From Candidatus Thorarchaeota archaeon (GTDB lineage Archaea; Asgardarchaeota; Thorarchaeia; Thorarchaeales; Thorarchaeaceae), in the NCBI GenBank assembly GCA_048882485.1, contig JBHLRP010000026.1, forward strand, positions 1 through 46,360: a stretch of 46,360 bases of DNA, in the 5' to 3' direction. The position numbers and the translations under genes are program-made. This document shows positions 16,789 to 34,382 of the stretch, in pieces. The number at the start of each line of letters is the position of its first letter. Positions within the stretch are counted from its first letter, which is position 1. Below the pieces are notes generated by a model. That model ran no database searches. It was not told where the DNA came from and was given only the letters and a program-made list of their open reading frames with translations.

Positions 16789-16895
16789 CGGGACGTAGCT
16801 CAAAAGAGCGTCGTTTCGACGAGCTCTGAGGAATCTGGCAGAGCAATGGACTGTAGATCCATCGGTTGCCGGTTCAAATCCGGCCGTCCCGACCA
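16789..16895 (+). tRNA. tRNA-Tyr(GTA) with ~30-nt D-loop intron (~15/16; 16804..16833), CCA encoded
   Basis: C1-G72 and A73 identity elements, arm ATGGA-CTGTAGA-TCCAT; insert has an AGAGC/GCTCT hairpin and a relaxed BHB. Confidence 0.93.
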
Positions 16896-16970
16896 TCTAC
16901 TTCTTTCAACCACATTGAGGATAGGGCTTTTGCATTTCCTTTGGAAGCCCTAAACAGGCAAACCAGGTTG

Positions 16971-18833
16971 TCAAGCTCTTCTATTTCTAAGCCAAATGAG
17001 TGCACTGACGATAGTAGCTACAACGAAGACTGAAACATACACAATCCACTGTGTCTGAATTCGAAATCCTGCAGAACCGTCGATACCAGATGGGTATCTA
17101 TCAACACTCCCTGCCGAACCTGGAATATTGTACACTCCCACTCCAACATAGTCCCCCCAAAAGTTGCCCATGCCAACTCCATCATCCCACTGATTGTTTG
17201 TTCCATTATCGTGCGCATTGCCTTCAGCATTTCCACTTAGCCTATTGTAATAGATCGTCACATTGCTTGATGACATTCTAATACCATAGCCAGAGTTGTC
17301 GAGTAATGTGTTATTAATCACTAAAGAGTGGTCGCTAGAGGCTAGATAGATGGCGGAGCTCCCACAATTTGTGACATAATTCTCTTCAATCACAAGGCTA
17401 TCAGAGTGATGACTGTAAATTCCTTGATGCTCCACTTCGAATATGCGATTCTTGCTGATAGTTGAGAAACTGCAGCGAAATAGCCAGATTCCTATATACT
17501 TGCCGTGAATTGTATTATTCCTTATCACTGCCTTCGGTGATAAATCAAGATAAATTCCCAGAGAATAGATTCCTAAGGAGCTTCCTTCAATCTCGAAGTT
17601 CTCTACACGACAATCATTGGAGTTGAGCATGCCTATCCTTGAACACCGTCCATTTACTACAGCAGAATTAGAGCAATAGTAGAATTCAATGCTCCTGCGA
17701 AATCCTTCCACTATACTATTTCTAATCTCAGTGTCACTACAATTAACGAGAATTATCTGCCCTGTCCTCTCAGCCTCAACGGTACTAGATGTTTCACCCA
17801 CAAGATACAGAAGAGGCAGACCATCAATGGTGTTGTTTGAAACTGCATGGGACACCTCATCCAGATGCTGAACATAGGGGAACCTTAAGCTTCCGTCGAT
17901 GAACTGGTTATCAACTATTGTAGCTGCCGTTACATCGTGCATCTCAAGAGAACCAGTTATACTGTTTCCTGAAATCATAGATCTATCCGCATGATGCAGA
18001 GTAATTCCGTTGTCGTTTTCATGTATTTCATTGCCAGTTATCACGAGATCCAGAGAATTGACGACCCTCAGAGCGTCACCAATGTTCTCAATGATTCTAT
18101 TTTCAGAAACAACACAACCATTTCCACTACCAATTATGATTCCTCCGCCAATTGGTGCATATTCCTGCAGAGGTCTCAGTCCCGACGGATTAATAGCTGC
18201 AATTCTATTCATCGATGTAATTACCGTCGTTACTGCCAGCAGGTATCCATTTCCCTTTACTACATTCCGACTCAACACACAATTGTCAGAAACTGCGAAA
18301 CGAACGCCAAATTCACTCTGAATGCCTGGGCTGATAATATTGTTTGAAACGTTGATTAAGTCTGACTCGCTGACATAAATCAATGCGTCAGCTAAGCTCT
18401 CTGGAGAGATTGTATTGTTCAATATTATGCAGTCATGACTCCATTCTAAATCTACTATGCCAAACACCAGGCTGTCTTCTAAGTCCCCATTTACAACATT
18501 AGAAAATCTTACCGAACCGCTCAATCTGCAGTTCTTCATTACAAAATGGGCATCTGTGTTCTCCACACTAATACAATAGTCATAACCGCTTTCTTCAATG
18601 CTCAGATTCTCTATCACATAGGGATTCACTCTAGTTCCACTGCCGGGCCAACCCTGCGCAACGAAATCCTGATTGTCGGTAATACTGATTGGACCATGGG
18701 GAATATACCCGTCAGATCGTACTGAGGAAAAGAATGGATAAAGCACATTTAGATAAAGCATCGTAGCTAGTAAAGCAGCAATAACAAGACAGAGAATCTG
18801 ACGAGATCTTTCCAATAGACCAAACACTCCCAA
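16971..18833 (-). CDS. NosD/CASH parallel beta-helix cell-surface protein with N- and C-terminal TM helices
   Basis: GWPGSGT..NPYVIEN, many Asn-ladder repeats, NQWDDG..GNFWGDY...DRYP. Confidence 0.85.
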   Translation of the reverse strand: MGVFGLLERSRQILCLVIAALLATMLYLNVLYPFFSSVRSDGYIPHGPISITDNQDFVAQGWPGSGTRVNPYVIENLSIEESGYDYCISVENTDAHFVMKNCRLSGSVRFSNVVNGDLEDSLVFGIVDLEWSHDCIILNNTISPESLADALIYVSESDLINVSNNIISPGIQSEFGVRFAVSDNCVLSRNVVKGNGYLLAVTTVITSMNRIAAINPSGLRPLQEYAPIGGGIIIGSGNGCVVSENRIIENIGDALRVVNSLDLVITGNEIHENDNGITLHHADRSMISGNSITGSLEMHDVTAATIVDNQFIDGSLRFPYVQHLDEVSHAVSNNTIDGLPLLYLVGETSSTVEAERTGQIILVNCSDTEIRNSIVEGFRRSIEFYYCSNSAVVNGRCSRIGMLNSNDCRVENFEIEGSSLGIYSLGIYLDLSPKAVIRNNTIHGKYIGIWLFRCSFSTISKNRIFEVEHQGIYSHHSDSLVIEENYVTNCGSSAIYLASSDHSLVINNTLLDNSGYGIRMSSSNVTIYYNRLSGNAEGNAHDNGTNNQWDDGVGMGNFWGDYVGVGVYNIPGSAGSVDRYPSGIDGSAGFRIQTQWIVYVSVFVVATIVSALIWLRNRRA

Positions 18834-18949
18834 TAAATGGACAACAGGTATGTACGATTTCTACCTTGGCAAGAACGTCCATATGCTCTCCTTATGATGA
18901 ATAGTGATACTAGTTAGTATAAATCTAATTCTCGAAAAGGCTAATCACA

Positions 18950-18997
18950 GACTGTAGATCCATCGGTTGCCGGTTCAAATCCGGCCGTCCCGACCAT
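18950..18997 (+). repeat. Perfect 48-bp copy of the tRNA-Tyr 3' half (att-like repeat 1)
   Basis: Identical to 16849..16896, starting in the anticodon stem. Confidence 0.95.
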
Positions 18998-19209
18998 TTT
19001 TCATTCTCCATATGAATTTTGCATCGACAATTGCCGATTTTCGCAAATCTAATAAAAGCATCCGCCAAATAGATGTGGAAGAGTGTCATAAATCAGCAGC
19101 GATGAGCGAATATTCCTTGGGCCTTCTAGAACAGATTGGTCCGGCTTTGGGTGTACTTGTTCACCGGGGCCACTGATGAAGTCCAAGATTGCGAGTTGGC
19201 TAATGAGGC

Positions 19210-20403
19210 ATGAACGTCATGCCATGGAGAGAATCGGAAAATCATACCCTAGACCCTACGAGGGTTGCCGTCCTGGGCGCAGGACATGCTGGCAGAGGCC
19301 TTGCCAGTTATCTCTCATTGCATGGATTAGATGTTTCTCTTTACAACCGTACAAAAGATCATGTCAAGGGAATCCTAGAAGCAAATGGAATCCATATGCA
19401 AGGCATTGTCGAAGCCTTTGCACCACTTCAGCTAATCACTGATGACATGGCCTATGCGATTGATGGCAGAAAGCTTCTCATTGTCACTGTTCCAGCCCAG
19501 GCACATACATTCTTTGCTGAAACCATGGGTCCACACCTAGAGGAAGGTCAAACAGTGCTTCTAATGCCAGGTCGAACTGGTGGCGCTCTTGAGTTTGCAA
19601 AAGTCTTGAGTGATAATTCGTACGGGGACGGCATTCTGTTGGGAGAGGCTCAGACGTTCAGTCTTGTGTCCAGAACCACTGGCCCGGATTCTGTGCTAGT
19701 TTCTAAGGTCAAGAATTATGTTGAAGTAAGTGCATTTCCAGCGAGTCACAATCGTCAGCTTGTGAATGCTTTCAATCGGCTTCCACTCACATTTCAGATG
19801 GTTGACGATGTCATGGACACCAGCCTCAACAATATAGGTGCAATGTTGCACCCGACTCCCACCATTCTCTGTGCTGGTCTCCTAGAGTCAAAGAAAGGCG
19901 GATACAACCATTATCATGATGCAATCTCAAAGACTGTAGGTAAACTGGTAGAACGAATGGATGCTGAAAGAATCAAGGTGTCACAACAGTTTGTGTCCCA
20001 ACCCATGCCCCTTCTGGAATGGCTAAGAAACACTTACGATGCTGAAGGGAGCACACTGTGTGAATGTATCCGAAGCATTGACACCTATGACGAAGTGGGC
20101 AGTCCTTCATCCCTGGACCATCGTTATGTATTGGAGGATGTGCCCACAGGTCTTGTACCCATCTCTCACTTCGGTAAATTAGCTGGAGTTGAAACTCCTG
20201 CCATAGATGCAGTAATCGACATGGCCTGCCAGCTCTATGAGGTTGATTTCTGGGGGAGTGGAAGAAATCTTGAAACCCTGGGTTTGGAAGGACTGAGCCC
20301 TACTGAGGTTCGAGAATATGTCAGGACTGGGACCATACCTGATTCATATCCTAGCTTTCCTGACCATTGGGACCTTTACGGGTTGGAGGTGGACGAGACA
20401 TGA
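19210..20403 (+). CDS. NAD/NADP octopine/nopaline (opine) dehydrogenase family protein
   Basis: VAVLGAGHAG Rossmann motif, PGRTGGALEF, NNIGAMLHP, HRYVLEDVPTGLVP. Confidence 0.9.
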   Translation: MNVMPWRESENHTLDPTRVAVLGAGHAGRGLASYLSLHGLDVSLYNRTKDHVKGILEANGIHMQGIVEAFAPLQLITDDMAYAIDGRKLLIVTVPAQAHTFFAETMGPHLEEGQTVLLMPGRTGGALEFAKVLSDNSYGDGILLGEAQTFSLVSRTTGPDSVLVSKVKNYVEVSAFPASHNRQLVNAFNRLPLTFQMVDDVMDTSLNNIGAMLHPTPTILCAGLLESKKGGYNHYHDAISKTVGKLVERMDAERIKVSQQFVSQPMPLLEWLRNTYDAEGSTLCECIRSIDTYDEVGSPSSLDHRYVLEDVPTGLVPISHFGKLAGVETPAIDAVIDMACQLYEVDFWGSGRNLETLGLEGLSPTEVREYVRTGTIPDSYPSFPDHWDLYGLEVDET

Positions 20404-22073
20404 GAATCTTGGGCGCTGCCATTGGAAGCTGTGTCCATGTAGCAGGTGTTCTTAGATTCTTATCACTTGCAGAAAAAGAAGGACATGAAACTATCTTCTT
20501 AGGACCCACAATCCAAATTGAGAATCTAATAGACCAGACCAAGAGATACGACCCTGATGTTATTGGGGTGAGCTACCGACTCACCGCAGATAGCGCTGTG
20601 GGCCTTCTCGAGAACATGAAAAAGGCTGTAATAGAAAGCGGTCTGGAAAGGAAGAGATGGATTCTAGGTTGCACAGCACCTGTCAAGTCCATTGCGGAAC
20701 GAACTGGACTGTTTGAAGCAATATTCACTGGCTTTTCTACTGATGAAGATTCACTAGCCTTTCTCAGAGGCCACTCGCACATGGAAACAGACGAGAAGCA
20801 CCCTCAAGACGTGATGACACGAATCGCCATGAAGAGCCCAATACCCCTTATCCGGCACCATTTCGGTCTACCATCACTAGAAGAAACAGTTGATGGGGTG
20901 GCAAGGATAGCAGAGGCTTCAGTTCTGGATGTGATCTCAATTGGTCCAGATCAGAATGCCCAAGAGTCCTTCTTCCGTCCAGATGAGATGAATGGAATCC
21001 TAGAAGGTGATGGAGGTGTTCCACTTAGGGAAGTCGAAGACCTACAGAAACTCTTCCAGGCCTCTCGAAGAGGCAATTTCCCGCTCTTGAGATGCTACAG
21101 TGGCACTCGTGATCTGCTATCCTGGGCAAAGATGCTAAAGGACACCATAAGCAATGCTTGGTGTGCCACACCTCTGATGTGGTATAGCGAACTAGATGGA
21201 AGAAGCAAAAGACACCTTGAACAAGCAATTCGAGAGAACCAAGAGAATCATAGATGGCACGCAAAACATGATATCCCTCTCGAAATCAACGAGTCCCACC
21301 ACTGGAGCTTGAGAAATGCCCATGATACAATTGCAGTTGCGATGGCATTTCTGTCAGCCTATAATGCTAAATCAGTCGGCATTAGACACTATGTTTCACA
21401 GTACATGTTAAACACCCCGCTTGGAACTTCTCCGAAGATGGACCTTGCCAAGATGCTTGCGAAGATAGAGCTGATTGAGTCATTACATGATCACAGTTTT
21501 CTTTCACTAAGGCAAGTCAGACCAGGCCTCTTTTCATATCCCCCAGACCTAGACTCAGGCAAGGGCCAACTTGCATCTTCAATCTATACAGGAATGATGT
21601 TGAAACCCCATATAGTACATGTAGTCGGATTCTGTGAGGCAGACCACGTTGCGACTGCAGAAGAGATCGTTGAAAGCTGCAAGATTGCACGACGGGTCAT
21701 TCATGACTGTCTTCTTGGGACCATGAGTCCATTAGATGACAAAGAAGTCCTAAGAAGAAAGAACGAACTCGTAGAGGAAGCCAAAGTGCTTATCGCCGCT
21801 ATCAATTCACTTGGTGATACATCCTCATCCACCCCTCTAGTTGAACCCTTAACATACGTGCGGGCAGTCGAGATAGGTGTATTGGATGCCCCACACCTGA
21901 GAAACAATCCCATTGCAAAGGGACAGCTCAGAACCAAAATGATTCATGGTGCATGTTTTGCCATAGACCCTAATTCAGGGGTTCCAATTGATGAGAATAC
22001 TAGACTAAGACAACTTGGCCTTGAAATAGAACTTAAGCGTGCATTGAGCCTACCTTATTTCAACAAATTATGA
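20400..22073 (+). CDS. Cobalamin-binding-domain protein with large uncharacterised catalytic domain
   Basis: N-terminal B12 Rossmann domain (GSCVHVAG...FLG...IGVSYRL); ATGA overlap with the opine dehydrogenase stop. Confidence 0.8.
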   Translation: MRILGAAIGSCVHVAGVLRFLSLAEKEGHETIFLGPTIQIENLIDQTKRYDPDVIGVSYRLTADSAVGLLENMKKAVIESGLERKRWILGCTAPVKSIAERTGLFEAIFTGFSTDEDSLAFLRGHSHMETDEKHPQDVMTRIAMKSPIPLIRHHFGLPSLEETVDGVARIAEASVLDVISIGPDQNAQESFFRPDEMNGILEGDGGVPLREVEDLQKLFQASRRGNFPLLRCYSGTRDLLSWAKMLKDTISNAWCATPLMWYSELDGRSKRHLEQAIRENQENHRWHAKHDIPLEINESHHWSLRNAHDTIAVAMAFLSAYNAKSVGIRHYVSQYMLNTPLGTSPKMDLAKMLAKIELIESLHDHSFLSLRQVRPGLFSYPPDLDSGKGQLASSIYTGMMLKPHIVHVVGFCEADHVATAEEIVESCKIARRVIHDCLLGTMSPLDDKEVLRRKNELVEEAKVLIAAINSLGDTSSSTPLVEPLTYVRAVEIGVLDAPHLRNNPIAKGQLRTKMIHGACFAIDPNSGVPIDENTRLRQLGLEIELKRALSLPYFNKL

Positions 22074-22111
22074 TACTCATATTTGCATCATATGAAGACA
22101 AGTAGCTTCTC

Positions 22112-22163
22112 TGGACTGTAGATCCATCAGTTGCCGGTTTAAATCCAGCTGTCCCGACCATCT
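22112..22163 (+). repeat. Second copy of the tRNA-Tyr 3' half (48/52 identical)
   Basis: tggactgtagatccatcagttgccggtttaaatccagctgtcccgaccatct versus 16847..16898. Confidence 0.93.
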
Positions 22164-22237
22164 CTCGTTTCTAAATCTCTTTTACAAACCTCATTTGTTA
22201 TAAGGAGGTATACTATCGTTAATATCGAGAGAGCAGA

Positions 22238-23428
22238 ATGAAGCCTGTTGAGATTGTAAAGGATGTCTACTGGGTTGGTGCAATTGACTATGATATACGA
22301 AACTTCCATGGATTTAGCTATACCACGCATCATGGGACCACGTACAATGCTTACCTCATAGTTGACAAGAAAGTCGCGCTTGTCGATACAGTTCTTAGTT
22401 CCTTCTCTGAAGAAATGCTCTCCAGAGTATCAGAGGTCATCGACCCTGAGAAAATCGACTATATGGTCTCAAATCATACAGAGATGGACCACTCCGGTGC
22501 TATACCTGATGCCCTGAAGGTCATGAAGAATGCAAGGCTCGTCTGTACCCCCAAAGCTGTTGATGAGTTCAAGAAGCACTACGCTGATGGATGGGACATT
22601 CACACTGTGAAGACTGGGGACGAGATAGACCTCGGAAGAAAAACGCTCAGATTTTACGAGGCTCCCATGTTACATTGGCCTGAGTCTATGTTCACCTACT
22701 ACGTAGAAGAGGAAGTACTCCTGCCGAACGATGCCTTCGGGCAGCACTATGCCACTGACAAACGATTTGCTGATGAGGTCGACCAGTATACTCTTTGGAA
22801 AGAGGCTGAGAAATACTATGCAAACATCCTATGGCCATTGAGTCGAATGGTACAACGAAAGATCGAAGAAGTGATTGAGCTTGGTCTTCCAATCAAAATC
22901 ATCGCTCCCTCCCATGGACTAATCTGGCGAAAGGATCCACTGCAAATTGCCACTAGGTACCTGGAGTGGGCCAAGGGAGAGCGATTACAAGACAAAGTAG
23001 TGATTACCTGGGACACAATGTGGCAAAGCACAACAAAGCTAGCCCGTGCAATTGCAGAAGGGATTAGTAGTCAGGGACTAACCCCCCTGCTGAAACTCAT
23101 ACCGCATAGTGATAGGAGCGATATAATGGCAGAGCTTCTAGAGGCAAGAGGGATAATTGTAGGAAGCTCCACCCTTCATAATGATATTCTGCCCACTGTG
23201 GCTCCGATTCTCTCAGATTTTGAGGTATTGAAACCCAGAGGAAAGAAGGCAGCTGCATTTGGGTCCTTCGGATGGGCCGGTGGTGCCGTGAAGAGAATCC
23301 AAGAAGCAATGGAAAAAGGAAAGATGGAAATTGTAATGGACCCTTTCACTGTGAAATGGGTGCCTACAGAAGCGGAACTCAACCAAGCGGTCCAATATGG
23401 AGTGGATTTCGCGAAGAAGGTGAAATAG
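22238..23428 (+). CDS. fprA: Flavodiiron protein (FprA / A-type flavoprotein)
   Basis: GTTYNAYL, NHTEMDHSG, LHWP, DAFGQH, APSHG, plus a C-terminal flavodoxin domain (FGSFGW). Confidence 0.93.
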   Translation: MKPVEIVKDVYWVGAIDYDIRNFHGFSYTTHHGTTYNAYLIVDKKVALVDTVLSSFSEEMLSRVSEVIDPEKIDYMVSNHTEMDHSGAIPDALKVMKNARLVCTPKAVDEFKKHYADGWDIHTVKTGDEIDLGRKTLRFYEAPMLHWPESMFTYYVEEEVLLPNDAFGQHYATDKRFADEVDQYTLWKEAEKYYANILWPLSRMVQRKIEEVIELGLPIKIIAPSHGLIWRKDPLQIATRYLEWAKGERLQDKVVITWDTMWQSTTKLARAIAEGISSQGLTPLLKLIPHSDRSDIMAELLEARGIIVGSSTLHNDILPTVAPILSDFEVLKPRGKKAAAFGSFGWAGGAVKRIQEAMEKGKMEIVMDPFTVKWVPTEAELNQAVQYGVDFAKKVK

Positions 23429-23431
23429 AAT

Positions 23432-24367
23432 TTGACTGATACAGAAATGGAATATGATGTCTCTATTGTTGGAGGAGGTCCTGCAGGACTGTCTGCAGGA
23501 ATCATAGCTGCATACAAGGGCCTCAAGACAATTGTTTTTGAAGGTGGCACTTGGGGCGGTCTTTTGTCCACAATCTACCCATACAAGCATGTGTTTAACT
23601 ACCCTGGCACACCGAGAGTATTAGCCACGCATCTGGTCGCCGAATGGGTCCGTCAAGCCGCGGATTTAGGAGTTCTCCTTGTCAAAGAACGTGTCACCGA
23701 GATTACCAAGGATCGTAATATAGTCACAACTGAGGGTGAATACAAATCGAAAGTTGTGATCATCGCAACTGGTATGCGTCCAAACATTTTGGGAATCCCT
23801 GGTGAGATTGAATTCTCTAGAAAGGGCCGGGGTGTGTTTCCGTATTTGTCAGACCCCGAACTCTTTCGTGATAAGAAGGTGTTAATCATAGGGGGTGGTG
23901 ATACAGCACTGGATGCTGTTGTAGATGCACACGAAGTGACTGATGAGATTTGGATTGCACACAGAAAAGATGAGTTTAGGGCGGCGGAAACAACAGTTGA
24001 TAAGATTCTGACTGAGAAGATGGCTGAGGTTCTTTACAACACTGAACTTCAGGAGATTAGAGGCGACTCAGAGGTTGAAGAAGTCACTCTTCTCAATAAT
24101 CAGACTGGAAAGAAGTATGACATGGCTATAGATCGCGTCATAATCGCTGTTGGTCTAGTCCCGAACACAGAAGTGTTTGAACATTTAGGTCTGAAAATGA
24201 ATGGCCGCTATGTTGTCGTTGACCATGAAATGAGAACAAGCGTGGAAGGCATTTTTGCTGCGGGAGATATCATTTCAGTATACCAGTTAGCCTCAGTGGC
24301 TGCAGCTCAGGGAGCACTTGCTGCCCACAATGCCTACAAGTATATTCGAAAACCGTACTGGTCATGA
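23432..24367 (+). CDS. TrxB-fold NAD(P)/FAD oxidoreductase without CxxC (ferredoxin/flavodoxin-NADP reductase-like)
   Basis: GGGPAG, IIATG, GGGDTA, HRKDEFRA, TSVEGIFAAGD; GVFPYLSD occupies the CxxC site. Confidence 0.85.
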   Translation: MTDTEMEYDVSIVGGGPAGLSAGIIAAYKGLKTIVFEGGTWGGLLSTIYPYKHVFNYPGTPRVLATHLVAEWVRQAADLGVLLVKERVTEITKDRNIVTTEGEYKSKVVIIATGMRPNILGIPGEIEFSRKGRGVFPYLSDPELFRDKKVLIIGGGDTALDAVVDAHEVTDEIWIAHRKDEFRAAETTVDKILTEKMAEVLYNTELQEIRGDSEVEEVTLLNNQTGKKYDMAIDRVIIAVGLVPNTEVFEHLGLKMNGRYVVVDHEMRTSVEGIFAAGDIISVYQLASVAAAQGALAAHNAYKYIRKPYWS

Positions 24368-24380
24368 ATCTCATCGGTAT

Positions 24381-24694: not shown

Positions 24695-24734
24695 TTTTTC
24701 ATTCTTAATATTCTGTTCTTATTAGAATCATATC

Positions 24735-26151: not shown

Positions 26152-26196
26152 TGAGAAGATGGAATCAAAGATCACCTACATACGTTTCTCATTCTG

Positions 26197-26736
26197 CTAA
26201 TCTCCATAGCCCAAACTTCGTTTCAAATGAGAATCGATCTTGTCAAACACAATTCTACAAGGGGTTGGCAGCTTAGGTGCCGCTCTTTTCAAGGCAGTTC
26301 TTGCATGTTTGATGCCCTTCTCATTGCACCTTATTGATATGATAGGTTGCCTTGGTTTTATCCTAGCTGCTCGTCCGATGACCTTTCCAAATGCCAACCG
26401 CATACCATCCTGTACACGATCTGCACCCGCACCTGTAATCATCTTGTTCTCGCGAATGAAATGATGCGGCTTGACTCTTACTCTCAAATGATAACTCTGT
26501 CTACCAACACGTCTTGTCATATATCGATTGGAAGCGATACGCGCTGCCTCAAGTGCCTGATGTCTAATCTGACATCTTTCAAGTCCAATTAAGGACATCT
26601 TTACATCAAATTCGCCTGCCGTATTGCCCATATCGAAGCTTGTGATTTTGCTCGGCGGTCTACGATGTATATACTGCTCTCTTGTGTATGGAGGACGATC
26701 ACATTCCCTATAACAACTAGCTGGGCGCTTGCCCAT
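26197..26736 (-). CDS. rpl10e: Ribosomal protein L10e (uL16)
   Basis: MGKRPASCYR, ALEAARI, RENKMITGAGADRVQDGMRLAFGK, KLP. Confidence 0.97.
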   Translation of the reverse strand: MGKRPASCYRECDRPPYTREQYIHRRPPSKITSFDMGNTAGEFDVKMSLIGLERCQIRHQALEAARIASNRYMTRRVGRQSYHLRVRVKPHHFIRENKMITGAGADRVQDGMRLAFGKVIGRAARIKPRQPIISIRCNEKGIKHARTALKRAAPKLPTPCRIVFDKIDSHLKRSLGYGD

Positions 26737-26786
26737 GATTTATCAGTCCCAGTCTTGACAATCTAATGTCAATCGTAAGCATAGTA

Positions 26787-27890
26787 TCACTCTTTCAAGT
26801 CATCTAGCCAGGTTGCATCTTTGTCCAACTCTCGAGTGAATATTCTCTCTTGATCGCCAGAGTTCTTTGCTTGTTGATACTTGAAGAGAAATCTCCCATT
26901 CATTATTCCAAGAATCTCAATCTTACCAGTAGGGTGTGACATTATGTAGCGGAACCGTTTGCTATGACCATTGAGCAGTTTCTTTGCGTCCTCAATAATC
27001 CCGTGTCCGTCATAGAGTGGCACCTGAAATGTCTTCTTTACCCTTGCTACGGGACGACACTGAAACACATAGTATGGATTGACACGAATGCTGACAAGTT
27101 TGTTCTGAAGCCCAGCCAAAACAGCTGGGTTGTCATTGACTCCTTTTAGGAGCACAGTCTGATTATTTACAACTATCCCAGCTGACATAAGCCTGTTAAT
27201 GGCAGCGATTGATTCCTTTGTCACTTCTCTGGGATGATTGTATTGTGTTACCACAAACAGCCTTCTGGATTTTTCCGAATACTCCCTCAAAAGCTCAATG
27301 AGCTCATCATCATCTAGTATCCGCTTTGGATAGGTGACTGGCACTCGTGAACCAAACCTGATGAAGTCTAAATGAGGGATATCTGAAAGCGCTTCGAGAA
27401 GAGTTCCAATTCGAGTTGTATTGAGAGTGAAAGGGTCACCGCCAGTGATCAATACGTTGTTGATTTCTTCATGTTCCATGATATATGCAACAGCGGCATC
27501 AACGTCTCTCAGAACCTCTTGACTAGGCAGTCCTACTAACCTCTTTCTGAAACAATGACGGCAGTACATTGCACATTCAGCGGTGGCGAGAATTACTGCA
27601 GTCTGTTTGTACTTATGCTGCAAGCCAGGTTGAATCGTGTTGGAAAGCTCTCCGCTAGTGTCGTATGATCCTTCTGCAATTGATTCAGTGCTACTAGGAA
27701 GAGCCATTTTTCTTATTGGATCCTCTGGATCTTCTTCATCTATTAAGGAGAGATAATACTCAGGAACACGAATTGGATGTATCTCACTCAACCGCTCGAG
27801 AACTTTTTCCTCGGGTTCAGTAAGATCCAAGATTTCTCCGAGATCATGAGCGGAGGTGATTAGTTCACCTCGGTCTAGAGGATGGCTCAA
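26787..27890 (-). CDS. KamA-family radical SAM / PLP aminomutase-like protein
   Basis: GLQHKY, CAMYCRHCFRKR, ITGGDP, NQTVLLKGVND, PYYVFQC, SHPTGKIEI. Confidence 0.9.
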   Translation of the reverse strand: MSHPLDRGELITSAHDLGEILDLTEPEEKVLERLSEIHPIRVPEYYLSLIDEEDPEDPIRKMALPSSTESIAEGSYDTSGELSNTIQPGLQHKYKQTAVILATAECAMYCRHCFRKRLVGLPSQEVLRDVDAAVAYIMEHEEINNVLITGGDPFTLNTTRIGTLLEALSDIPHLDFIRFGSRVPVTYPKRILDDDELIELLREYSEKSRRLFVVTQYNHPREVTKESIAAINRLMSAGIVVNNQTVLLKGVNDNPAVLAGLQNKLVSIRVNPYYVFQCRPVARVKKTFQVPLYDGHGIIEDAKKLLNGHSKRFRYIMSHPTGKIEILGIMNGRFLFKYQQAKNSGDQERIFTRELDKDATWLDDLKE

Positions 27891-28060
27891 GAGCCTGCAC
27901 CCTCAATGGGTTCCCTTGCGGGTTCTGTAGACATCCTTGAGATAATCGCCATCTTTCGTTCGATATCATACCATTCAGTTATTGGTATCCTGGCTGCCAA
28001 TCTTTCTCTATCATCTACAGCAGGAGTTTCATCCTCCTCTTTTCTATCATCTTCTCTCAT
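27887..28060 (-). CDS. 57-aa microprotein with PITEWYDIER motif, coupled to the KamA gene (not in ORF track)
   Basis: MREDDRKEEDETPAVDDRERLAARIPITEWYDIERKMAIISRMSTEPAREPIEGAGS; its TGA overlaps the TTG start of KamA; paralog at 33548..33709. Confidence 0.7.
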   Translation of the reverse strand: MREDDRKEEDETPAVDDRERLAARIPITEWYDIERKMAIISRMSTEPAREPIEGAGS

Positions 28061-28465
28061 TTCATACCGCCTCTTTTGCAGGAATAATCGACATTACTTG
28101 GTCAATCAGGATGGGTTCGTTCTGTCGATTCTGCCTTTCCGTATGCTCTCATGATACAAGAGATTGACACTAGGCTTGGTTTTGCCTAACCTGCCAAAGG
28201 TTATTCCTACTTTTTCTTCAGTATTACACGTAAAGCTGCAAGACTGCTTAAAAATTCTGTGTTGCTTATAAGGCCTTAAAAGGTAAAATTAGATTCTATA
28301 AAACTCTCCGCGCCTTTTAAAGGATTATCCTGAGATTTATATGTTCTCCCTTGTACTAGTTAACTAAGTGTTGGATCAAAGAATGGTATTTCCTATGCAA
28401 ATTAGTTCTCGAGAACACGCCAAGTTATCAATTTCTTGCAAAATCCACTTTGTTCAACCAATGTG

Positions 28466-29008
28466 ATGCAAATGAATTCTGAAACAGACTCTTCGGAAGC
28501 AAAATCTGAAACAAGTAATGAGGTAAAAATCGCTGAACTGGAAACTAGAATGAGCAATATTGACACTAGTTTCAAGGTACTAGAAAAGGGCGATGTACGT
28601 GAAGTAACATCTAGACGAGATGGGAGCATCAATCGAGTAGCCAGTGCAATTGTAGGGGACGAAACCGGAATTGTGACACTTCCATTATGGAATGATATGA
28701 TAGAAGCAATCGAAGCTGGCAAAACCTATGTTTTGAAGAATGCACATACTGGTCTCTTTCGAGGAAATCTTAGACTGAAGATTAGTCGAGATAGTGAAAT
28801 CAGCGAGAGAGAGGAAGAGATCACTGACGTCAAAATGGACAATGACCTGTCCGAAGCTGACCATGGCAGACCGCGACGACGTCATTACTATCAAGGATAC
28901 TCCAATCGTTCCTATGGCTCCGACCGCGCTAGATATGGTGGAGGCTATAGAGGCCATTCATCTCGTGATAGAAGCGACTATCGTCGCCGAAGAAGACGAC
29001 GGTACTAG
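28466..29008 (+). CDS. Single OB-fold ssDNA-binding protein (SSB/RPA-like) with R/G/S/Y-rich tail
   Basis: VASAIVGDETG.V.L.LW, NAHTGLFRGNLRL; tail YGGGYRGHSSRDRSDYRRRRRRRY. Confidence 0.85.
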   Translation: MQMNSETDSSEAKSETSNEVKIAELETRMSNIDTSFKVLEKGDVREVTSRRDGSINRVASAIVGDETGIVTLPLWNDMIEAIEAGKTYVLKNAHTGLFRGNLRLKISRDSEISEREEEITDVKMDNDLSEADHGRPRRRHYYQGYSNRSYGSDRARYGGGYRGHSSRDRSDYRRRRRRRY

Positions 29009-29054
29009 TGCGGCTTTGAAAGATGATGAATATGGAAGAAGGAGGAATGAGTCG

Positions 29055-29297
29055 ATGGTAGAAGAGCTTGAAGGGTGTATCACTTCATCTCAAGTTGCTA
29101 AAATCGATAAGACAGACCGTGAGTATGGTTATATCGGAATTGAAACATCTGATAACAGATACCTGAAGCTCAAGGTAGACTTCTACACAGATTATGACAC
29201 TCTAGATCGTGGAGAAGATGTGATAGTAAAATATGAACCATACGGGTCTACTCATGTCTTTGTTGCTAAAGAAATCAGAAAGAAAACAGCGTCGTGA
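29055..29297 (+). CDS. 80-aa beta-rich (OB-fold-like) hypothetical protein
   Basis: GGAGG upstream of ATG 29055; the longer ORF-track version overlaps the SSB gene. Confidence 0.6.
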   Translation: MVEELEGCITSSQVAKIDKTDREYGYIGIETSDNRYLKLKVDFYTDYDTLDRGEDVIVKYEPYGSTHVFVAKEIRKKTAS

Positions 29298-29451
29298 AAG
29301 CATCTGGAATCAACACATCAACCGTACAATTTAAAGTGCCTGGAATTGAAACATGCTGTAGTCTATCTGATTATCGCTCTAAAACGATAGCAAGAGCAAT
29401 CCATTAGAGTCAATAGCCACGTAGAACAACACAATCTGGATTTGTTTACAA

Positions 29452-29946
29452 TTGACAGAACCGGCCAGAGAGATAGTAGTGGCGATTATAGGCGAGCCAC
29501 AAGTGGGCAAGACACAGCTCATCCAACTATTGAACGATGATGCTGAAAGCAATGGCATAACAACCAAACTGGAATCCAAAGACTCCATTTTTACATTTTG
29601 GGAGCTTCAGACATCAAGTTCTGCACCCGAAAAACTGGAGATATTTGCCCGGTCCTTCCTTCAGAATAGCAGACCATTTCATCGCTATCTACTAATCGTC
29701 ACTGATAGCACAAGCGAGGACGTGAATCGAATCAAATACTCCTTGAGGTTTCTTCGAGAGTCATTTCCAGACACGCGATTTTCTATTGTTGCAAATAAGC
29801 AGGATTTGGATGAGTCTCTAAACAAATCACGCATAGAGAAAATGATAAATCTACCCACTCTAGAGATTTCAGCAATAAATCCTGAGAATCGCATCAGACT
29901 CGTAAATTTCCTTTCTTATCTGATCGAATCAGATACAGGGCTCTAG
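29452..29946 (+). CDS. Degenerate Ras-superfamily small GTPase
   Basis: G1 GEPQVGKT, G4 NKQD, G5 SAI; G3 DxxG replaced by WELQTS. Confidence 0.75.
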   Translation: MTEPAREIVVAIIGEPQVGKTQLIQLLNDDAESNGITTKLESKDSIFTFWELQTSSSAPEKLEIFARSFLQNSRPFHRYLLIVTDSTSEDVNRIKYSLRFLRESFPDTRFSIVANKQDLDESLNKSRIEKMINLPTLEISAINPENRIRLVNFLSYLIESDTGL

Positions 29947-29959
29947 GACTCTAACCTAT

Positions 29960-30241
29960 TCAGCTATGGAAATGCTCCTTGAATGCAACCCATTTCTCCC
30001 CATTTTCATCGCTGAGGACAATCATCTTCAGGTTCAAGTCTTTGGCGTACTGTCTAAGTGTGTGATGGGTCAGCCCCATGTAACTCACAACGTCATCCAG
30101 ACTCATCGGCTCTCCAGTTTCATTATATTTCTTAATCAGTTTCTTGAACTTTGGGAAGTTACGTACTCTACCTCTACGATATCTTAATTCATCTTCTGAT
30201 TTAGTCCTTATTTCATCCAAATCCATCGTATTAAGCCTCAT
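29960..30241 (-). CDS. Small basic HTH-like protein
   Basis: SLDDVVSYMGLTHHTLRQYAKDL resembles a helix-turn-helix. Confidence 0.55.
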   Translation of the reverse strand: MRLNTMDLDEIRTKSEDELRYRRGRVRNFPKFKKLIKKYNETGEPMSLDDVVSYMGLTHHTLRQYAKDLNLKMIVLSDENGEKWVAFKEHFHS

Positions 30242-30378
30242 TATAATTCATGACATATTTACTAATATATCTTTATCATATAGCAATTATAATTCTCAAT
30301 TAATATTATCTCTATCGTATCTATATCATAATATTTATTATAGCTCAATCCATATGTATTACACTAAGTTGATGAATA

Positions 30379-31038
30379 ATGAGTAATGATGAAGAAATAA
30401 AGAAGAACATTGTAGATCTGCTATATTGGGACAGCAGAGTAGACGCATCAAATGTCAAAGTCGAAGTTGAGAAAGGAGAGGTTGCTCTTAGAGGTACAGT
30501 CCCTACCTATACAGCATCAGAGGCGGCACTATTCGACTCATGGAAGCCGAAAGGTGTTGTCAAAGTAGATAATCAGATTATGGTGAAGTCCTACGGCCAA
30601 AAGAAGCTTCCAAGCGACTCTGAGATTCAGAGTAGAATTGAAAACATGCTCTCCTGGAACCAGAGCATAAACAATCTGGACGTCACGGTTTCAGCTGCAT
30701 CAGGAACAGTATCTCTTGAGGGCTATGTGGATGCATATTGGAAGAAATTACGAGCTGAGCAACTTGCATCTGACGTCCTTGGTGTCCTAACGGTGAAGAA
30801 TAAGCTAATGATAGTCCCTACCAAGAGTGTGGTTGATGAAGCTATTGCAAAGGACATCAAATTGGCTATGGAGAAGACAGATGGTATCGATCCCAGTTCT
30901 ATTGATATTAGGGTCAAAGACGGAAAAGTAACACTCTCTGGAAATGTCAAAGGAGCAAGGGCATATCATGCAGCGCTCGAATGCGTTGTGAACACCTTCG
31001 GTGTCGTAGACATAGACAACAATCTGTCAGTAAAATAA
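30379..31038 (+). CDS. Triple BON-domain protein without signal peptide
   Basis: Three repeats of D..I...I...L.....V.V..G.V.L.G.V...GV..V.N.L. Confidence 0.88.
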   Translation: MSNDEEIKKNIVDLLYWDSRVDASNVKVEVEKGEVALRGTVPTYTASEAALFDSWKPKGVVKVDNQIMVKSYGQKKLPSDSEIQSRIENMLSWNQSINNLDVTVSAASGTVSLEGYVDAYWKKLRAEQLASDVLGVLTVKNKLMIVPTKSVVDEAIAKDIKLAMEKTDGIDPSSIDIRVKDGKVTLSGNVKGARAYHAALECVVNTFGVVDIDNNLSVK

Positions 31039-31105
31039 CAGAACAAGTTGGTGACATGACACCTGTCGTGTCCCTTTCATCCTTGTTCAAAGATAGATTC
31101 TGACC

Positions 31106-32047
31106 TTATGACTGCCAAATCACAATCCCGAGCAGCGCTATACTGAAGAACATACCCAATGCGTACGAGAGGTCGATATAGATTAACAGGTCGGCTAAAT
31201 TGACGAAGAGGAATAGGTATGTTGTGCTAAAGAAAACCACAAGCACGATGATCGTGAGCAGCGTCTTTTCAAGGCCTGAAAATGGTTTGTAGCTAAGAGA
31301 GAAGATACGAAACCATAACATCACACTGAGGAGGCCAAGGGGTGGAACGAGCATCAAGATTAATGCCATAGGCCATAGAAGAAACACACTGAGAATTGCT
31401 CTGATCTCATTCATTGTTTCACGGTATCTCTCGAACTCCGCGGAATAGACTCTTCCATAGTCCCTCCAAACGTAGGACTGATATCCCTTCCAAAGGGAAA
31501 ATCTCAGATTACCGATTCTCCCACCAACATTTTCCAAGATGCTCTTCCCAGCCTTAGGATTGTATATTCCCAGAGAGAGTGGTATAATGTAGACAAAGAG
31601 CATCAATGACCATATCCCATAGACCGCAGCCAAGTTCTCAAGGAATGTTAGACTTCGTGATAATACAACAGCATTCGCAAAGGTGTAGATCGCATAGCCA
31701 AGGACCGCGAGTATTGGAAGCATCAGCGCCGTCTTTAGAACAGTGAAACGCCTCCTATTTCCTCTCACTTGAATTGCTAGTACTCGAAATAGCAGGGAAC
31801 AAACTGACGCATAAGTCAGCATCACTCCAAATCCGCTGAGGAATTTCATACTAACGCCTGATACTGAAAGAAGCCAAATTGCTGAATCGTTCGCATATAG
31901 CGCTTGAAGATCAAAGCCACCATAAAGCAACATGATTACAAAGATTATCAATCCAGAAATGAATGCTATAAGATAGCCTCTATAGTGGTTCGCAAGCTCC
32001 TTACTGAATTGTCTAATTAAGGTGGACATGAACCTCTTTCCATTCAT
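31106..32047 (-). CDS. Multi-pass membrane protein of unknown function
   Basis: About 7-8 hydrophobic segments; directly downstream of tfb paralog 2. Confidence 0.7.
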   Translation of the reverse strand: MNGKRFMSTLIRQFSKELANHYRGYLIAFISGLIIFVIMLLYGGFDLQALYANDSAIWLLSVSGVSMKFLSGFGVMLTYASVCSLLFRVLAIQVRGNRRRFTVLKTALMLPILAVLGYAIYTFANAVVLSRSLTFLENLAAVYGIWSLMLFVYIIPLSLGIYNPKAGKSILENVGGRIGNLRFSLWKGYQSYVWRDYGRVYSAEFERYRETMNEIRAILSVFLLWPMALILMLVPPLGLLSVMLWFRIFSLSYKPFSGLEKTLLTIIVLVVFFSTTYLFLFVNLADLLIYIDLSYALGMFFSIALLGIVIWQS

Positions 32048-32071
32048 TAGAAGTCCTATTCATCTCTCCAA

Positions 32072-33022
32072 CTACGAATCAGTATCGAAAGAAATCCCAA
32101 GAGAACGAACAAGTTCCTTGTATCTGTTTCGAATCGTTACCTCTGTGACGCGCGAAGCTTTGGCTATCTCGCGCTGTGTACGCTTGTCCTCCTCAAGTAT
32201 ACCAGCTATGTATAATGCAGCTCCTGCAATTCCACCAGGGTCCTTTCCTATAGTTATTCGACCCTCCTTAGCCCTTCTGACTATCTCAGTGGCTTTTCTC
32301 ATGGTTTTTCCTTCAAGACCAAGATCAGAGGAAAGTCTTGGAATGAGGTCCTTCGCTGATGCAAGTGGCACATTAACATTAACTTGATAGATGACCAACC
32401 GTACAGCTTGACCCATCTGTTTTCTATCTATCTTTGCCTCAGCCACAACCTCATCCAGTCGTCTAGGAATCCGGTGAATCCGACAAGCAAGATAGATCGA
32501 TGCCGCAACAACGGCCTCAATGCTTCTTCCTCTGACCAATCGCTTTGCCAGAGCTTTTCTGTATATGAGAGCCGCAGTTTCTCTGGCCTCCCGTGGAATC
32601 CCGAGTTGTGAGGAGAGCCTCTCCATCTCGCTCATTGCAATACCAAGATTCCTAAGTTGAGAACTATGAACCCTACTTCTGATATGCCACTTTCTCATTC
32701 TGTATATTGCAGCACGCGTAGTACTCTTCAGTGCCCTGCCACTCGCATCCTTGTTCCGCCAGTCAATTGTAGTTGAGAGGCCTTTGTCAGCCATGCTGAG
32801 TCTCATTGGAGCACCCGTTCTCGCTTTTGCATCTCTCTCTTCTGCTGTGAAGGCTCTCCATTCAGGGCCTCTATCTGCAGAACGTTCTGATACAACCAAT
32901 CCACATGACGTACAGATACGTTCTGCACGAGCATAGTCCTTGGTGAATGAGGTTTCTCCACAACCTAAGCACGTTTCTGACTTGTCTAAACGAGTCCTCT
33001 TTCCTCTAGCTGAATTCGCCAT
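32072..33022 (-). CDS. tfb: Transcription initiation factor IIB, paralog 2
   Basis: CLGC...CTSCG, GPEWRAF, DKGLSTTIDW, VTEVTIRNRYKEL. Confidence 0.96.
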   Translation of the reverse strand: MANSARGKRTRLDKSETCLGCGETSFTKDYARAERICTSCGLVVSERSADRGPEWRAFTAEERDAKARTGAPMRLSMADKGLSTTIDWRNKDASGRALKSTTRAAIYRMRKWHIRSRVHSSQLRNLGIAMSEMERLSSQLGIPREARETAALIYRKALAKRLVRGRSIEAVVAASIYLACRIHRIPRRLDEVVAEAKIDRKQMGQAVRLVIYQVNVNVPLASAKDLIPRLSSDLGLEGKTMRKATEIVRRAKEGRITIGKDPGGIAGAALYIAGILEEDKRTQREIAKASRVTEVTIRNRYKELVRSLGISFDTDS

Positions 33023-33034
33023 TTTCGTCTACTC

Positions 33035-33547
33035 CTAGCGACCACCCGTCAACTGAAAGCTGTCAGTTAGTTTCTTGAAGATAGGATTCTCTGAAATTCT
33101 GACCTGCTTTCCACTTCCATTAGACCCTATATACAAACCAAACATCACAAGCAACCCATATGGACCACCATCAGGAGAAGGGATTATGATAGCCACCCAT
33201 TTCTTACGTGATAGCCCAGTTCCTGTCACAAACTCCCGCGCTCTGCGATCTATCTCTCCGACTCTAATTGTAGTCGTCTTCCCCATCTTCGCTGATGGGC
33301 CAATCTCAAGGGCGAAGTCATGAATTAGATTCCTCAGTGTGTTATGATTGTGTATCCCGTTTCTATATGACCTAACAACAAACTCCAACGAACCTCTTGG
33401 CGGTCGCAATAGTCTGAGATAACAGTCTGACTCAGGAAACTTCCTAACTGTCATGGCAGTTCCTGAATAATCCAATGAGAAGCCTATTGGTGGCAACCTC
33501 TGGTCCCAAGCTTCTGATGGCGTAGAAAGAACTCTAGTAACATTCAT
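33035..33547 (-). CDS. Hypothetical protein (170 aa) in operon with tfb paralog 2
   Basis: ATG directly follows the stop of the upstream microprotein; 12-nt gap to tfb. Confidence 0.65.
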   Translation of the reverse strand: MNVTRVLSTPSEAWDQRLPPIGFSLDYSGTAMTVRKFPESDCYLRLLRPPRGSLEFVVRSYRNGIHNHNTLRNLIHDFALEIGPSAKMGKTTTIRVGEIDRRAREFVTGTGLSRKKWVAIIIPSPDGGPYGLLVMFGLYIGSNGSGKQVRISENPIFKKLTDSFQLTGGR

Positions 33548-33709
33548 CTACAATTTCTCCTCTTCTTCGCTTTCATTTCGAGGAGATTCTGGGAGTCTTG
33601 TTGCTTCGAAGTAGGGTCTGTCTGCAGTCATTCGTGCTACTATGGCCATTCTTCTCTCAATATCATACCATTCTGTGATTGGTAATCCAGCGGCTAGTCC
33701 TTCGGTCAT
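33548..33709 (-). CDS. 53-aa microprotein with PITEWYDIER motif, copy 2 (not in ORF track)
   Basis: MTEGLAAGLPITEWYDIERRMAIVARMTADRPYFEATRLPESPRNESEEEEKL; TAG abuts the next ATG. Confidence 0.7.
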   Translation of the reverse strand: MTEGLAAGLPITEWYDIERRMAIVARMTADRPYFEATRLPESPRNESEEEEKL

Positions 33710-33740
33710 TTTGGTTCACTTCAATTACGGCTCAGAGCCA

Positions 33741-33882
33741 AAGTAGGACATTTCGGGCTTCGTACAATGAATGCAATATAACCGCATAATCGGTCACTAC
33801 AAGAATACAGCCGAACTTATTCTCTACTTATCTCTCAATCAATCCCCAATATCAAAGCATGCTTATAAAAGTGGGCTCTTTT
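33741..33882 (-). promoter_or_regulatory. Duplicated promoter/leader, copy A (TATA plus AGAATA-N10-TATTCT inverted repeat)
   Basis: Aligns with 35602..35750; TTTTATAAG at 33862..33870; inverted repeat at 33802..33823. Confidence 0.7.
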
Positions 33883-33992
33883 GTCTTATAAAGAGAAGAA
33901 TCCCTTTATTCTTGTCATTTTTCCACTTGTAAGGCTTATCAGAAGTATTTCGGAAAGTTCTTCTCAATGGCTTCACAGATATATTGTATACT

Positions 33993-34028
33993 CATCAATT
34001 GCCGGTTCAAGTCCGACTATGCCGCCTA
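33993..34028 (+). repeat. Third, eroded copy of the tRNA-Tyr 3' end (27/36 identical)
   Basis: catcaattgccggttcaagtccgactatgccgccta versus catcggttgccggttcaaatccggccgtcccgacca; ungapped, intergenic, same orientation. Confidence 0.65.
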
Positions 34029-34040
34029 TTCAAGAGCGAA

Positions 34041-34348: not shown

Positions 34349-34382
34349 TCTAAATATCCTGCTAACATGAGAACAATCTATC

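Follow-up and report, generated by a model that had tools for sequence, protein, structure and literature searches.

Gene units bounded by copies of a tRNA-Tyr 3' part in a Candidatus Thorarchaeota chromosome

As far as is known, eukaryotes have no closer relatives than the Asgard archaea. The genomes of these archaea are large and rich in genes, and the ways in which the genes are acquired are little understood. The tRNA-Tyr locus of a Candidatus Thorarchaeota archaeon raises the question of whether accessory genes are collected one after another behind a single tRNA gene, and by what means. This locus is contained in a stretch of 46,360 nucleotides (GenBank assembly GCA_048882485.1, contig JBHLRP010000026.1, positions 1 to 46,360), which is termed the window. 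The window is the whole contig C26 of a metagenome-assembled genome (MAG), which is 3.96 Mb in size, consists of 157 contigs and is 90.5% complete with 5.8% contamination. This MAG is termed G000; other G-numbers represent genomes of relatives, L-numbers related loci and C-numbers contigs of G000. In a reading made from the sequence alone, the locus was regarded as an integron-like gene-capture system, to which cassettes are added at the tRNA gene by a recombinase acting in trans. Comparison of approximately 80 related Thorarchaeota loci indicates that the array is very probably real, units being gained at the tRNA gene, whereas their loss, relocation and exchange take place at the copies of its 3' part (halves).

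The tRNA-Tyr gene and the copies of its 3' part

The tRNA-Tyr gene is located at the head of an array with the following elements.

16789..16895, + strand: tRNA-Tyr(GTA) with encoded CCA, array head (partial Rfam match at 16822-16884; ARAGORN after removal of the insertion)
16803..16832, + strand: 30-nt insertion in the D loop, an intron-like hairpin (comparison with the G005 and G014 genes; fold of -12.1 kcal/mol; position good to +/-2 nt owing to flanking A residues)
16897..18949: unit 1, 2053 unique bp, with one gene for a beta-helix/NosD-like secreted protein (16971-18833, - strand; Pfam)
18950..18997, + strand: copy 1 of the tRNA-Tyr 3' part, from the anticodon loop to CCA plus T (48/48; blastn E 6e-21)
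18998..22111, + strand: unit 2, approximately 3114 bp, with an Octopine_DH-like gene (19210-20403) and a B12-binding/MutE-like gene (20367-22073; Pfam)
22112..22162, + strand: copy 2 of the tRNA-Tyr 3' part (47/51; blastn E 3.5e-13)
22163..33981: compound third interval of older units (Pfam; comparison with G005, L085, G013, L084, L088, L090 and L096)
33982..34029, + strand: copy 3 of the tRNA-Tyr 3' part, decayed (34/48 in register; nhmmer E 3.6e-6 over 33982-34017)

ARAGORN calls no tRNA at 16789 as the sequence stands, because the D loop contains the 30-nt insertion, and calls tRNA-Tyr(GTA) once this insertion is taken out. The exons of the gene are identical to the intronless genes of relatives, which ARAGORN calls tRNA-Tyr. 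The sequence-only reading described three copies of the 3' half behind this gene, all in the same orientation, and this arrangement is confirmed by blastn, by a profile search and by the orthologous locus of the sister genome G005. Copy 1 is exactly as described. Copy 2 is present at the position given for it, with a count of 47/51 instead of 48/52. Copy 3 had been given as 27/36 at 33993; it is a genuine copy, but its extent and identity are those listed above. By plain blastn, copy 3 is at the chance level (17-nt core, E 2.6). It is nevertheless real, because it is recognized by the nhmmer profile built from 74 tRNA-Tyr halves of related loci, and because its orthologue in G005 is a clean 27/27 match from the T stem to CCA, adjoining hyp170.

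The first bases of copies 1 and 2 are the final two of the anticodon stem's 5' strand (GA|CTGTAGA), in accordance with the earlier claim that the copies begin in this stem; both copies stop one base past CCA. The recurring element is the tRNA-Tyr 3' part in register with the gene, not an imperfect inverted repeat of the attC type. No additional copy of this part is found elsewhere in the 3.96-Mb genome. When the related loci and the other tRNA arrays of G000 are included, the left edges of the copies cluster in the anticodon loop (about twenty cases) or at the T stem/loop, and the right edge is always CCA. The equivalents of copy 3 in G005 and G011 begin at the T stem, and the copies of the other G000 arrays begin at TTCAAATCC.

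Introns of the tRNA-Tyr gene occur at three positions (D loop, around position 20 and anticodon loop) and are combined differently among close relatives, as is seen in the window (16803-16832) and in L090, L096, L098, L099, L101, L105, L113 and L118. Each combination is paired with its own promoter-spacer allele. A 319-amino-acid (aa) tRNA-splicing endonuclease, EndA, with N- and C-terminal domains is encoded at 8506-9465 (- strand), 7 kb from the intron-bearing tRNA-Tyr gene, and is probably a host core gene.

Gain, loss and reordering of the units

For mapping of the locus, genomes of 16 species from the genus and of additional genera from the family were used. They are supplemented with 41 metagenome contigs, chosen by the presence of a tRNA-Tyr T arm, and with 18 loci reached via the B12 protein. 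In the relatives, the flanks of the array are stable, with the methylase gene upstream and the genes for nitroreductase-2 and a 336-aa protein (p336) downstream. All between these flanks is variable, and the breakpoints are tRNA-Tyr fragments. The nitroreductase-2 and p336 genes are located almost directly behind tRNA-Tyr in other genera (G018 and G024) and in L094 and L098.

G005 has the order tRNA, unit 2, half, FprA-TrxB and, further downstream, hyp170, half, TFB3. It lacks exactly unit 1 and one repeat (2101 bp), and its tRNA gene is located directly before unit 2, which represents an empty site. G000 and G005 are 95.7% identical to each other, without a gap, over 18950-24365. Another empty site is represented by G014, L117 and G023, in which the tRNA gene is located directly before FprA. 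The order is tRNA, unit 2, half, FprA-TrxB, TFB in G009; hyp170, half, unit 2 in G001 and G004; and tRNA, unit 2, half, TFB, half, nitroreductase-2 in L084. It is tRNA, TFB, half, unit 2 in L090; tRNA, small genes, half, unit 2 in L089; and tRNA, CorA, half, unit 2, half, TFB in L101. G013 has geneX, half, TFB-hyp170, half, FprA, whereas G007 has geneX, half, FprA. In G081, which belongs to another genus, the tRNA gene is followed by a distant (28%) beta-helix gene in the opposite orientation, a half, unit 2, a half and TFB. Unit 2 is found in at least six neighbourhoods, in which it is always joined at a half: behind the tRNA gene, behind hyp170 plus half, and behind a TFB, a CorA, a small-gene or a 223-aa membrane-protein unit. 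Units are present, absent or reordered exactly at the copies, as the sequence-only reading had anticipated for relatives.

The identity of the halves to the resident tRNA gene is non-increasing with distance from it in all nine arrays that have two or more halves; it falls in eight of them and is tied in one. This result indicates that the newest unit is the proximal one and that insertion occurs at the intact gene. Stepwise addition at the tRNA gene, with the newest cassette proximal, had been proposed from the sequence, and both the empty sites of the relatives and this decay bear it out. The region of approximately 19 kb from the tRNA gene to nitroreductase-2 came in as separate units, and each of these units is now bounded by a copy of the tRNA 3' part.

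The first two intervals are compact and hold only cargo, and FprA/TrxB follows copy 2, both as had been noted before and as Pfam shows. Of the genus genomes searched, G000 alone encodes the unit 1 protein, the best match in the genus being 40% identical over part of the protein. Lack of a close relative in the genus indicates that unit 1 is a new acquisition. Beta-helix homologues with 57-60% identity are encoded on other contigs, where no tRNA ends flank them. The remaining features of the array and its flanks are as follows.

13635..15686, - strand: left flank, gene for a 683-aa DNA methylase-like protein (Pfam N6_N4_Mtase)
15866..16651, - strand: nitroreductase gene (Pfam)
22238-23428 and 23432-24367: FprA and TrxB, directly after copy 2 (Pfam)
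24381-24875, - strand: small genes
25180-26151: TFB
26197-26736, - strand: rpl10e paralogue
26787-27890, - strand: radical SAM
28436-29008, 29452-29946 and 30379-31038: SSB-like, GTPase and BON
31106-32047, 32072-33022 and 33035-33547, all - strand: hyp313, TFB and hyp170
34041..35529, - strand: last unit, with three small genes (49, 62 and 40 aa, the 40-aa one Cys-rich) and a third TFB paralogue
35752..37387, - strand: right flank, nitroreductase-2 and p336

The third interval had been considered not to be a simple cassette, since it contains rpl10e. It is indeed a compound of older units, and its rpl10e is a second copy, the other copy in the genome being located on C96 with 71% identity. 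The FprA-TrxB pair is closed by its own truncated half in L085, which indicates that the interval is a stack of older units, the boundaries of which have mostly decayed. A candidate for a decayed half after TrxB in G000 (24368-24378) is not significant by profile, and a clear one is found only in L085. TFB-hyp170 is a half-bounded unit in G013, L084, L088, L090 and L096. G005 lacks the 24.4-26.75 kb stretch and BON. Eight TFB paralogues are encoded in the genome, of which three are located in the array (25180-26151, 32072-33022 and 34573-35529); two of these three are 83% identical to each other. Thus, paralogues of information-processing genes (TFB and rpl10e) travel as units.

The small-gene trio is duplicated (24381-24875 and 34041-34532, - strand) with 71-86% identity. 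It encodes proteins of 49 aa, of 60-62 aa (basic) and of 40-44 aa (Cys-rich, C-x-C-x-H...C-x2-C-x-C) without Pfam match. The trio alone constitutes the tRNA-proximal unit of the metagenome locus L089. It is not general machinery, since it is present within the genome only in this window and, as one weak match, on C125. Hyp170 always adjoins a half, but resembles a small secreted or membrane protein and was rejected as a DNA enzyme. A search for related loci with hyp170 as a query finds nothing.

The units are compact, with 40-210 nt of flank and without pseudogene debris or integrase fragments. The strands of their genes are mixed: unit 1 is antisense to the tRNA gene, unit 2 is sense, and TFB-hyp170 and the small genes are antisense. 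Some units are multigene. The genes seem to carry their own promoters, and a common Pc promoter is absent.

The methylase-like gene of the left flank adjoins tRNA-Tyr in most related loci and is a conserved neighbour across the family. The nitroreductase gene between them sits in an 876-bp indel (15864-16739) on the 5' side of tRNA-Tyr, as defined by blastn gaps and junction sequences. G000, G016 and several metagenome loci carry this indel, which is missing from G005, G014 and G009 and has no tRNA fragment at its borders.

Within the family, multi-copy tRNA-Tyr ends belong mainly to two genera (g1 and g5), and most other sampled genera have a single copy. The cargo at the related tRNA-Tyr loci includes membrane proteins, GNAT, CAAX protease, HhH-GPD, CorA, DUF3800, Mrr, TIR, methyltransferases and small proteins. 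In genus g5, the arrays carry defence-type cargo, consisting of an Mrr restriction endonuclease, a TIR protein and a 290-aa PD-(D/E)XK protein (NucS_C-like), at 5211-8143 of L145 (G083) and 8000-10429 of L144 (G087). The 290-aa protein is 74% identical between G083 and G087.

A search of the whole genome with the tRNA 3' halves, which the sequence-only reading had suggested, yields no extra tRNA-Tyr copy but further arrays at tRNA genes for Gly, Ala, Asp, Leu, His and Phe. At least nine copies of the 3' end are located behind tRNA-Gly(CCC) on C103 and C82, and at least six copies of the tRNA-Ala 3' end on C71. The genes for tRNA-Leu, His and Phe and two further Gly genes are also trailed by such copies. 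The contigs with these arrays are C82, C103, C71, C20, C6, C63, C40 and C142. In all arrays of G000 other than that of tRNA-Tyr, the copies are 23-26 nt long and begin in the T loop. Among the cargo of these arrays are luciferase-like oxidoreductases, TPR proteins and membrane proteins. The proteins common to these arrays (luciferase-like oxidoreductases, TPR proteins and a membrane protein) are cargo only and were rejected as machinery. One of these arrays, that of tRNA-Asp, is located in the window itself (42225-44640, - strand), where the 3'-end sequence is placed at 44528, 43233 and 42246.

44503-44640, - strand: tRNA-Asp(GTC), intron-containing
43490-44386, - strand: unit with a 298-aa protein without Pfam match
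starting at 43233 and 42246, - strand: tRNA-Asp copies from the T loop to CCA, 23-26 nt, which bound the two one-gene units
42344-43201, - strand: unit with a 285-aa ATC_hydrolase-like protein

The tRNA gene at the start of the contig (Rfam 27-91; ARAGORN 24-132, tRNA-Val with intron) has its last 30 bases repeated exactly at 25-54 of C155; this match is probably an assembly overlap at the contig end.

The catalyst and the mode of insertion

The catalyst is not encoded in the locus. Pfam annotation of the submitted open reading frames (ORFs), which comprise nearly all ORFs of at least 110 aa, detects no integrase, transposase, replication or viral gene in the window, as had been read from the sequence. 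The ORFs overlapping the repeats (18967-19176, 22139-22333 and 16759-16953) give no Pfam match even at E<=1, and neither Int(N) nor Int(C) fragments are detected in them; by the same analysis, an integrase gene split by attP over the tRNA repeats, which is the hallmark of integration of the SSV type, is not found. Resolvase, Y1_Tnp, IS110 and RVT_1 have no match in the MAG. TnpB is encoded by only 3-4 genes, all on other contigs. The HNH, GIY-YIG and LAGLIDADG matches of the genome were rejected as an array nuclease, since none is located on an array contig. The 290-aa PD-(D/E)XK protein of the two genus-g5 arrays was rejected as an array enzyme as well, since it is absent from G000 and is otherwise found in defence islands without tRNA repeats.

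The explanation favoured here, to which a probability of roughly 0.5 is assigned as a whole, is that the locus is a tRNA-Tyr-anchored accretion island ('cassette array') in the Thorarchaeota chromosome, built by a loop-specific recombinase acting in trans and by homologous recombination. The ancestral order would be methylase, tRNA-Tyr, nitroreductase-2 and p336. Incoming DNA would recombine inside the tRNA gene, at the anticodon loop for copies 1 and 2 and at the T arm for the others. The newcomer would supply a new 3' part that is functional, or in some cases an entire tRNA allele, and would displace the old 3' part downstream. Later recombination between the co-oriented copies may delete units, return them to the head or swap them between lineages. 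The agent would most likely be a loop-specific site-specific recombinase, provided in trans from an element not captured in MAGs, because the repeat boundaries match the two classical sublocations of tyrosine integrases in tRNA genes; the later shuffling would be done by ordinary homologous recombination. Williams is said to have described, in 2002, the anticodon loop and the T loop as the integration sublocations of tyrosine integrases that target tRNA genes.

Two groups of results weigh against this explanation. The first concerns the enzyme. PF00589 (Phage_integrase) has no match at E<=0.01 anywhere in the MAG, the window included; PF16795, the SSV-type integrase family, has none in the MAG either, and jackhmmer searches of the MAG seeded with integrases of the genus find nothing (best E 0.041), so that a stand-alone integrase elsewhere in the MAG, for which the sequence-only reading had proposed to look, is not detected by these searches. 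At the related tRNA-Tyr loci, the ORFs screened in the units and their flanks include no integrase, integrase fragment, excisionase or replication gene, nor a serine recombinase, an HUH or IS110 enzyme or a reverse transcriptase. A tyrosine recombinase of any kind is confined to 4 of the 17 genomes of the genus and 16 of the 41 of the family, and none of those examined in the genus and family is located within about 8 kb of a tRNA gene or tRNA end. IMG/VR contains no contig with the tRNA-Tyr att sequence or with the att sequences of two other arrays. A tyrosine integrase acting in trans has no counterpart in these data: across the genus and family, among the 41 metagenome loci and in IMG/VR, neither such an enzyme nor any autonomous element with the tRNA-Tyr att site is found. 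The XerA-type dimer-resolution enzyme also seems to be missing, because most family genomes lack a detectable tyrosine recombinase.

The second group concerns the shape of the junctions. The promoter spacer, which comprises the 64 nt before the tRNA gene, is only 78% identical between G000 and G005, whereas its flanks are 88-96% identical, and the D-loop intron differs too. Both the spacer and the intron of G000 belong to the allele family of L096, L101, L113 and L090, not to that of G005, G014 and G009. A simple crossover in the anticodon loop does not explain why these two were changed in G000. The position of the left edge differs among copies within a range of about 10 nt. In the extreme case, L113, nearly all of the old tRNA gene is kept as the displaced copy, which carries two introns. 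The resident tRNA gene of L118, L099 and L098 contains an intron in its anticodon loop, which the displaced half lacks; in L118, moreover, the acceptor allele of the displaced half is unable to pair with the resident 5' strand. The change in G000, its identity profile against G005 given below and the structures of L113, L118, L099 and L098 hint at block replacement by homologous repair, which they fit better than a clean loop crossover. Over 10341-37186 of the window, the identity between G000 and G005 (L015) is mosaic (88-92%, 78%, 100%, 95.7% over 5.4 kb without a gap, 81.9% and 91.5%): it is 88.5% upstream, 95.7% from copy 1 to the end of TrxB and 81.9% further downstream, so that two of its break points are a tRNA half and the TrxB end.

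A broader claim is tentative and regarded here as doubtful, namely that Thorarchaeota have a new integrase-independent cassette exchange system, in which tRNA 3' ends serve as sites for an unrecognized enzyme of the host or of an element (recombinase or nuclease) together with homologous recombination. The tRNA-Tyr array would then be one active platform, which collects and reshuffles genes for metabolism, the cell surface, defence and even transcription factors (TFB).

Replacement of the 3' end by a homing-type process is considered unlikely. An endonuclease, encoded elsewhere or formerly in a unit, would cut the intact tRNA-Tyr gene, and gene conversion from a tRNA-unit-half donor would follow. 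The unit and a fresh, sometimes intron-protected tRNA part would be copied in, and the old 3' end would be left downstream. No integrase is required for this process, by which the WHO elements build clusters of fragments, the FBA1 3' end being exchanged every time that homing takes place (PMC7282813). At the very place where G000 gained unit 1 and the upstream nitroreductase gene, its tRNA allele belongs to another family than that of the nearest relative. The nearly whole old tRNA gene of L113, the intron of the resident gene facing an intronless half in L118, L099 and L098, the misfit of the L118 acceptor allele, the mosaic identity with breaks at a half and at the TrxB end, and the variable left edges all agree with it. 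Against it, no recognizable homing endonuclease is encoded in the annotated tRNA-Tyr units, the proximal ones of which contain beta-helix, membrane proteins, CorA, DUF3800, Mrr and small proteins. The HNH, GIY-YIG and LAGLIDADG matches and the PD-(D/E)XK protein are no better candidates, for the reasons given above. The uniform T-loop edge of the other arrays suits an integrase equally well as a nuclease. The resident tRNA 3' part and copy 1 are identical, so that no resistant allele is visible in G000.

It is likewise improbable that the array is a fossil island, in which the halves are scars of a few ancient integrations of integrase-bearing elements, the cargo has been left behind, the variation arises from homologous recombination, deletion and exchange between lineages, and nothing is active today. 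The decay of the distal copies fits such an origin; recombination between direct repeats accounts for the losses and the reordering, and the mosaic identity for exchange between lineages. Tyrosine recombinases are sporadic in the family, and mobile elements are often missed in MAGs. However, the perfect or nearly perfect proximal copies without an integrase (48/48 in G000, 47/48 in G016 and the preserved half before unit 2 in G001) indicate recent events. Unit 1 has no close relative in the genus, so that it is newly acquired and not reshuffled. The compactness of the units, which contain no pseudogene debris or integrase fragments, and the many arrays per genome with uniform one-gene units also argue against it.

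An artefact of chimeric assembly or binning, or a chance likeness to the T-arm consensus, can practically be dismissed: the MAG is fragmented and partly contaminated and copy 3 alone is at the blastn chance level, but the same architecture is present in independent assemblies of many samples and species, a Logan assembly reproduces unit 1 with both junctions, and the repeats have E values of 1e-13 to 1e-21 by blastn and, for copy 3, of 3.6e-6 by profile. The independent Logan assembly (run SRR30758835) contains a 2113-bp contig (L143) that corresponds to window 16867-18979 with 99.95% identity. This contig was rejected as a circle of unit 1, because its length equals that of the 2053 unique bp with 30 nt of repeat added on either side, as expected for a k=31 unitig, and is thus uninformative on circles. 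The metagenome contig L091, with halves near both ends, was rejected as a circle as well, since it has no terminal redundancy.

Significance and comparison with known systems

The locus presents a single tRNA gene as a growing, reorderable shelf for accessory genes, including TFB, rpl10e and SSB-like paralogues, and several other tRNA genes of the genome serve likewise. If the array is built without a classical integrase, it would represent a new gene-capture mechanism, comparable in effect to an integron. If a hidden integrase acts, the array would provide ready-made att sites and natural empty and occupied alleles for finding the enzyme. It is an old idea that tRNA introns guard their genes against integration, and the variation of the tRNA-Tyr introns at three positions among close relatives bears on it.

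Asgard mobile elements integrate at tRNA genes, and no more than this is reported on the subject by Wu et al. (2022); a description of integrase-free tRNA-fragment arrays in Archaea is not found in the literature searched. A paper on an ANME-1 hotspot, considered as a precedent, is unrelated. 'Gene capture' by integrated elements in Sulfolobus, reportedly described by She et al. in 2001, is an example of tandem accretion at tRNA genes, as are tRNA-linked genomic islands in general.

In the WHO elements of Torulaspora/Lachancea yeasts, an endonuclease triggers the gene conversion by which FBA1 receives a different 3' end (PMC7282813). They resemble the array in that the 3' end of one host gene is replaced repeatedly and the old 3' ends pile up downstream between the inserts, in that no integrase is needed, and in that the replacement of alleles can reach into the gene. 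They differ from it in that their units encode, or once encoded, the endonuclease, whereas the Thorarchaeota units are unrelated cargo in which no endonuclease is recognized. The target in Thorarchaeota is a tRNA gene, so that the replacement cannot differ in exon sequence.

cis-Mobilizable elements (CIMEs) are att-flanked remnants that are mobilized by a related integrative and conjugative element (ICE), as in the accretion-mobilization model for the ICESt elements of Streptococcus thermophilus. Like CIMEs, the units of the array are flanked by att sites, encode no recombination functions and follow one another in tandem at a host gene's 3' end. The array differs from CIMEs in that searches of the genus, of the family, of the metagenome loci and of IMG/VR reveal no related autonomous element with the same att site.

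Integrons have reportedly been found in Archaea by Ghaly et al. in 2022. The array resembles an integron in that it is polarized at one anchor, consists of small units that are individually gained, lost and reordered, has the newest unit proximal and contains no mobility genes. The dedicated integron-like system of the sequence-only reading is not upheld, however, because IntI is absent both beside the anchor and anywhere in the genome, the repeats are tRNA gene fragments instead of attC imperfect palindromes, attI with its Pc promoter is missing, the genes face both ways and seem to have their own promoters, and several cassettes are multigene.

Accreted tRNA islands share with the array inserts that are bounded by direct repeats of the tRNA 3' part with the intact tRNA gene at one end, an identity block that extends from the anticodon loop or the T loop to the 3' end of the tRNA gene, newcomers that push older units away, accessory cargo, and partial tRNA genes scattered through the island. 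The tycheposon islands of Prochlorococcus follow the same push-down logic at tRNA genes (bioRxiv 10.1101/2020.12.28.424599). The array departs from such islands in that its screened units and flanks contain no integrase, integrase fragment, excisionase or replication gene and none is found in most of the genomes; in that its compact units measure no more than 0.66-3.1 kb and often hold one gene; and in that the same units are reshuffled among positions, the 5' part of the tRNA gene and its promoter sometimes changing with the unit. In its working, the array thus compares with accreted tRNA islands and, by its effect, with an integron; it falls short of both in the recombinase, and of the integron also in attC, orientation and Pc. 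As far as such likenesses go, the locus is closest to tandem accretion at tRNA genes, as in the tycheposon islands, and may be called integron-like by analogy only.

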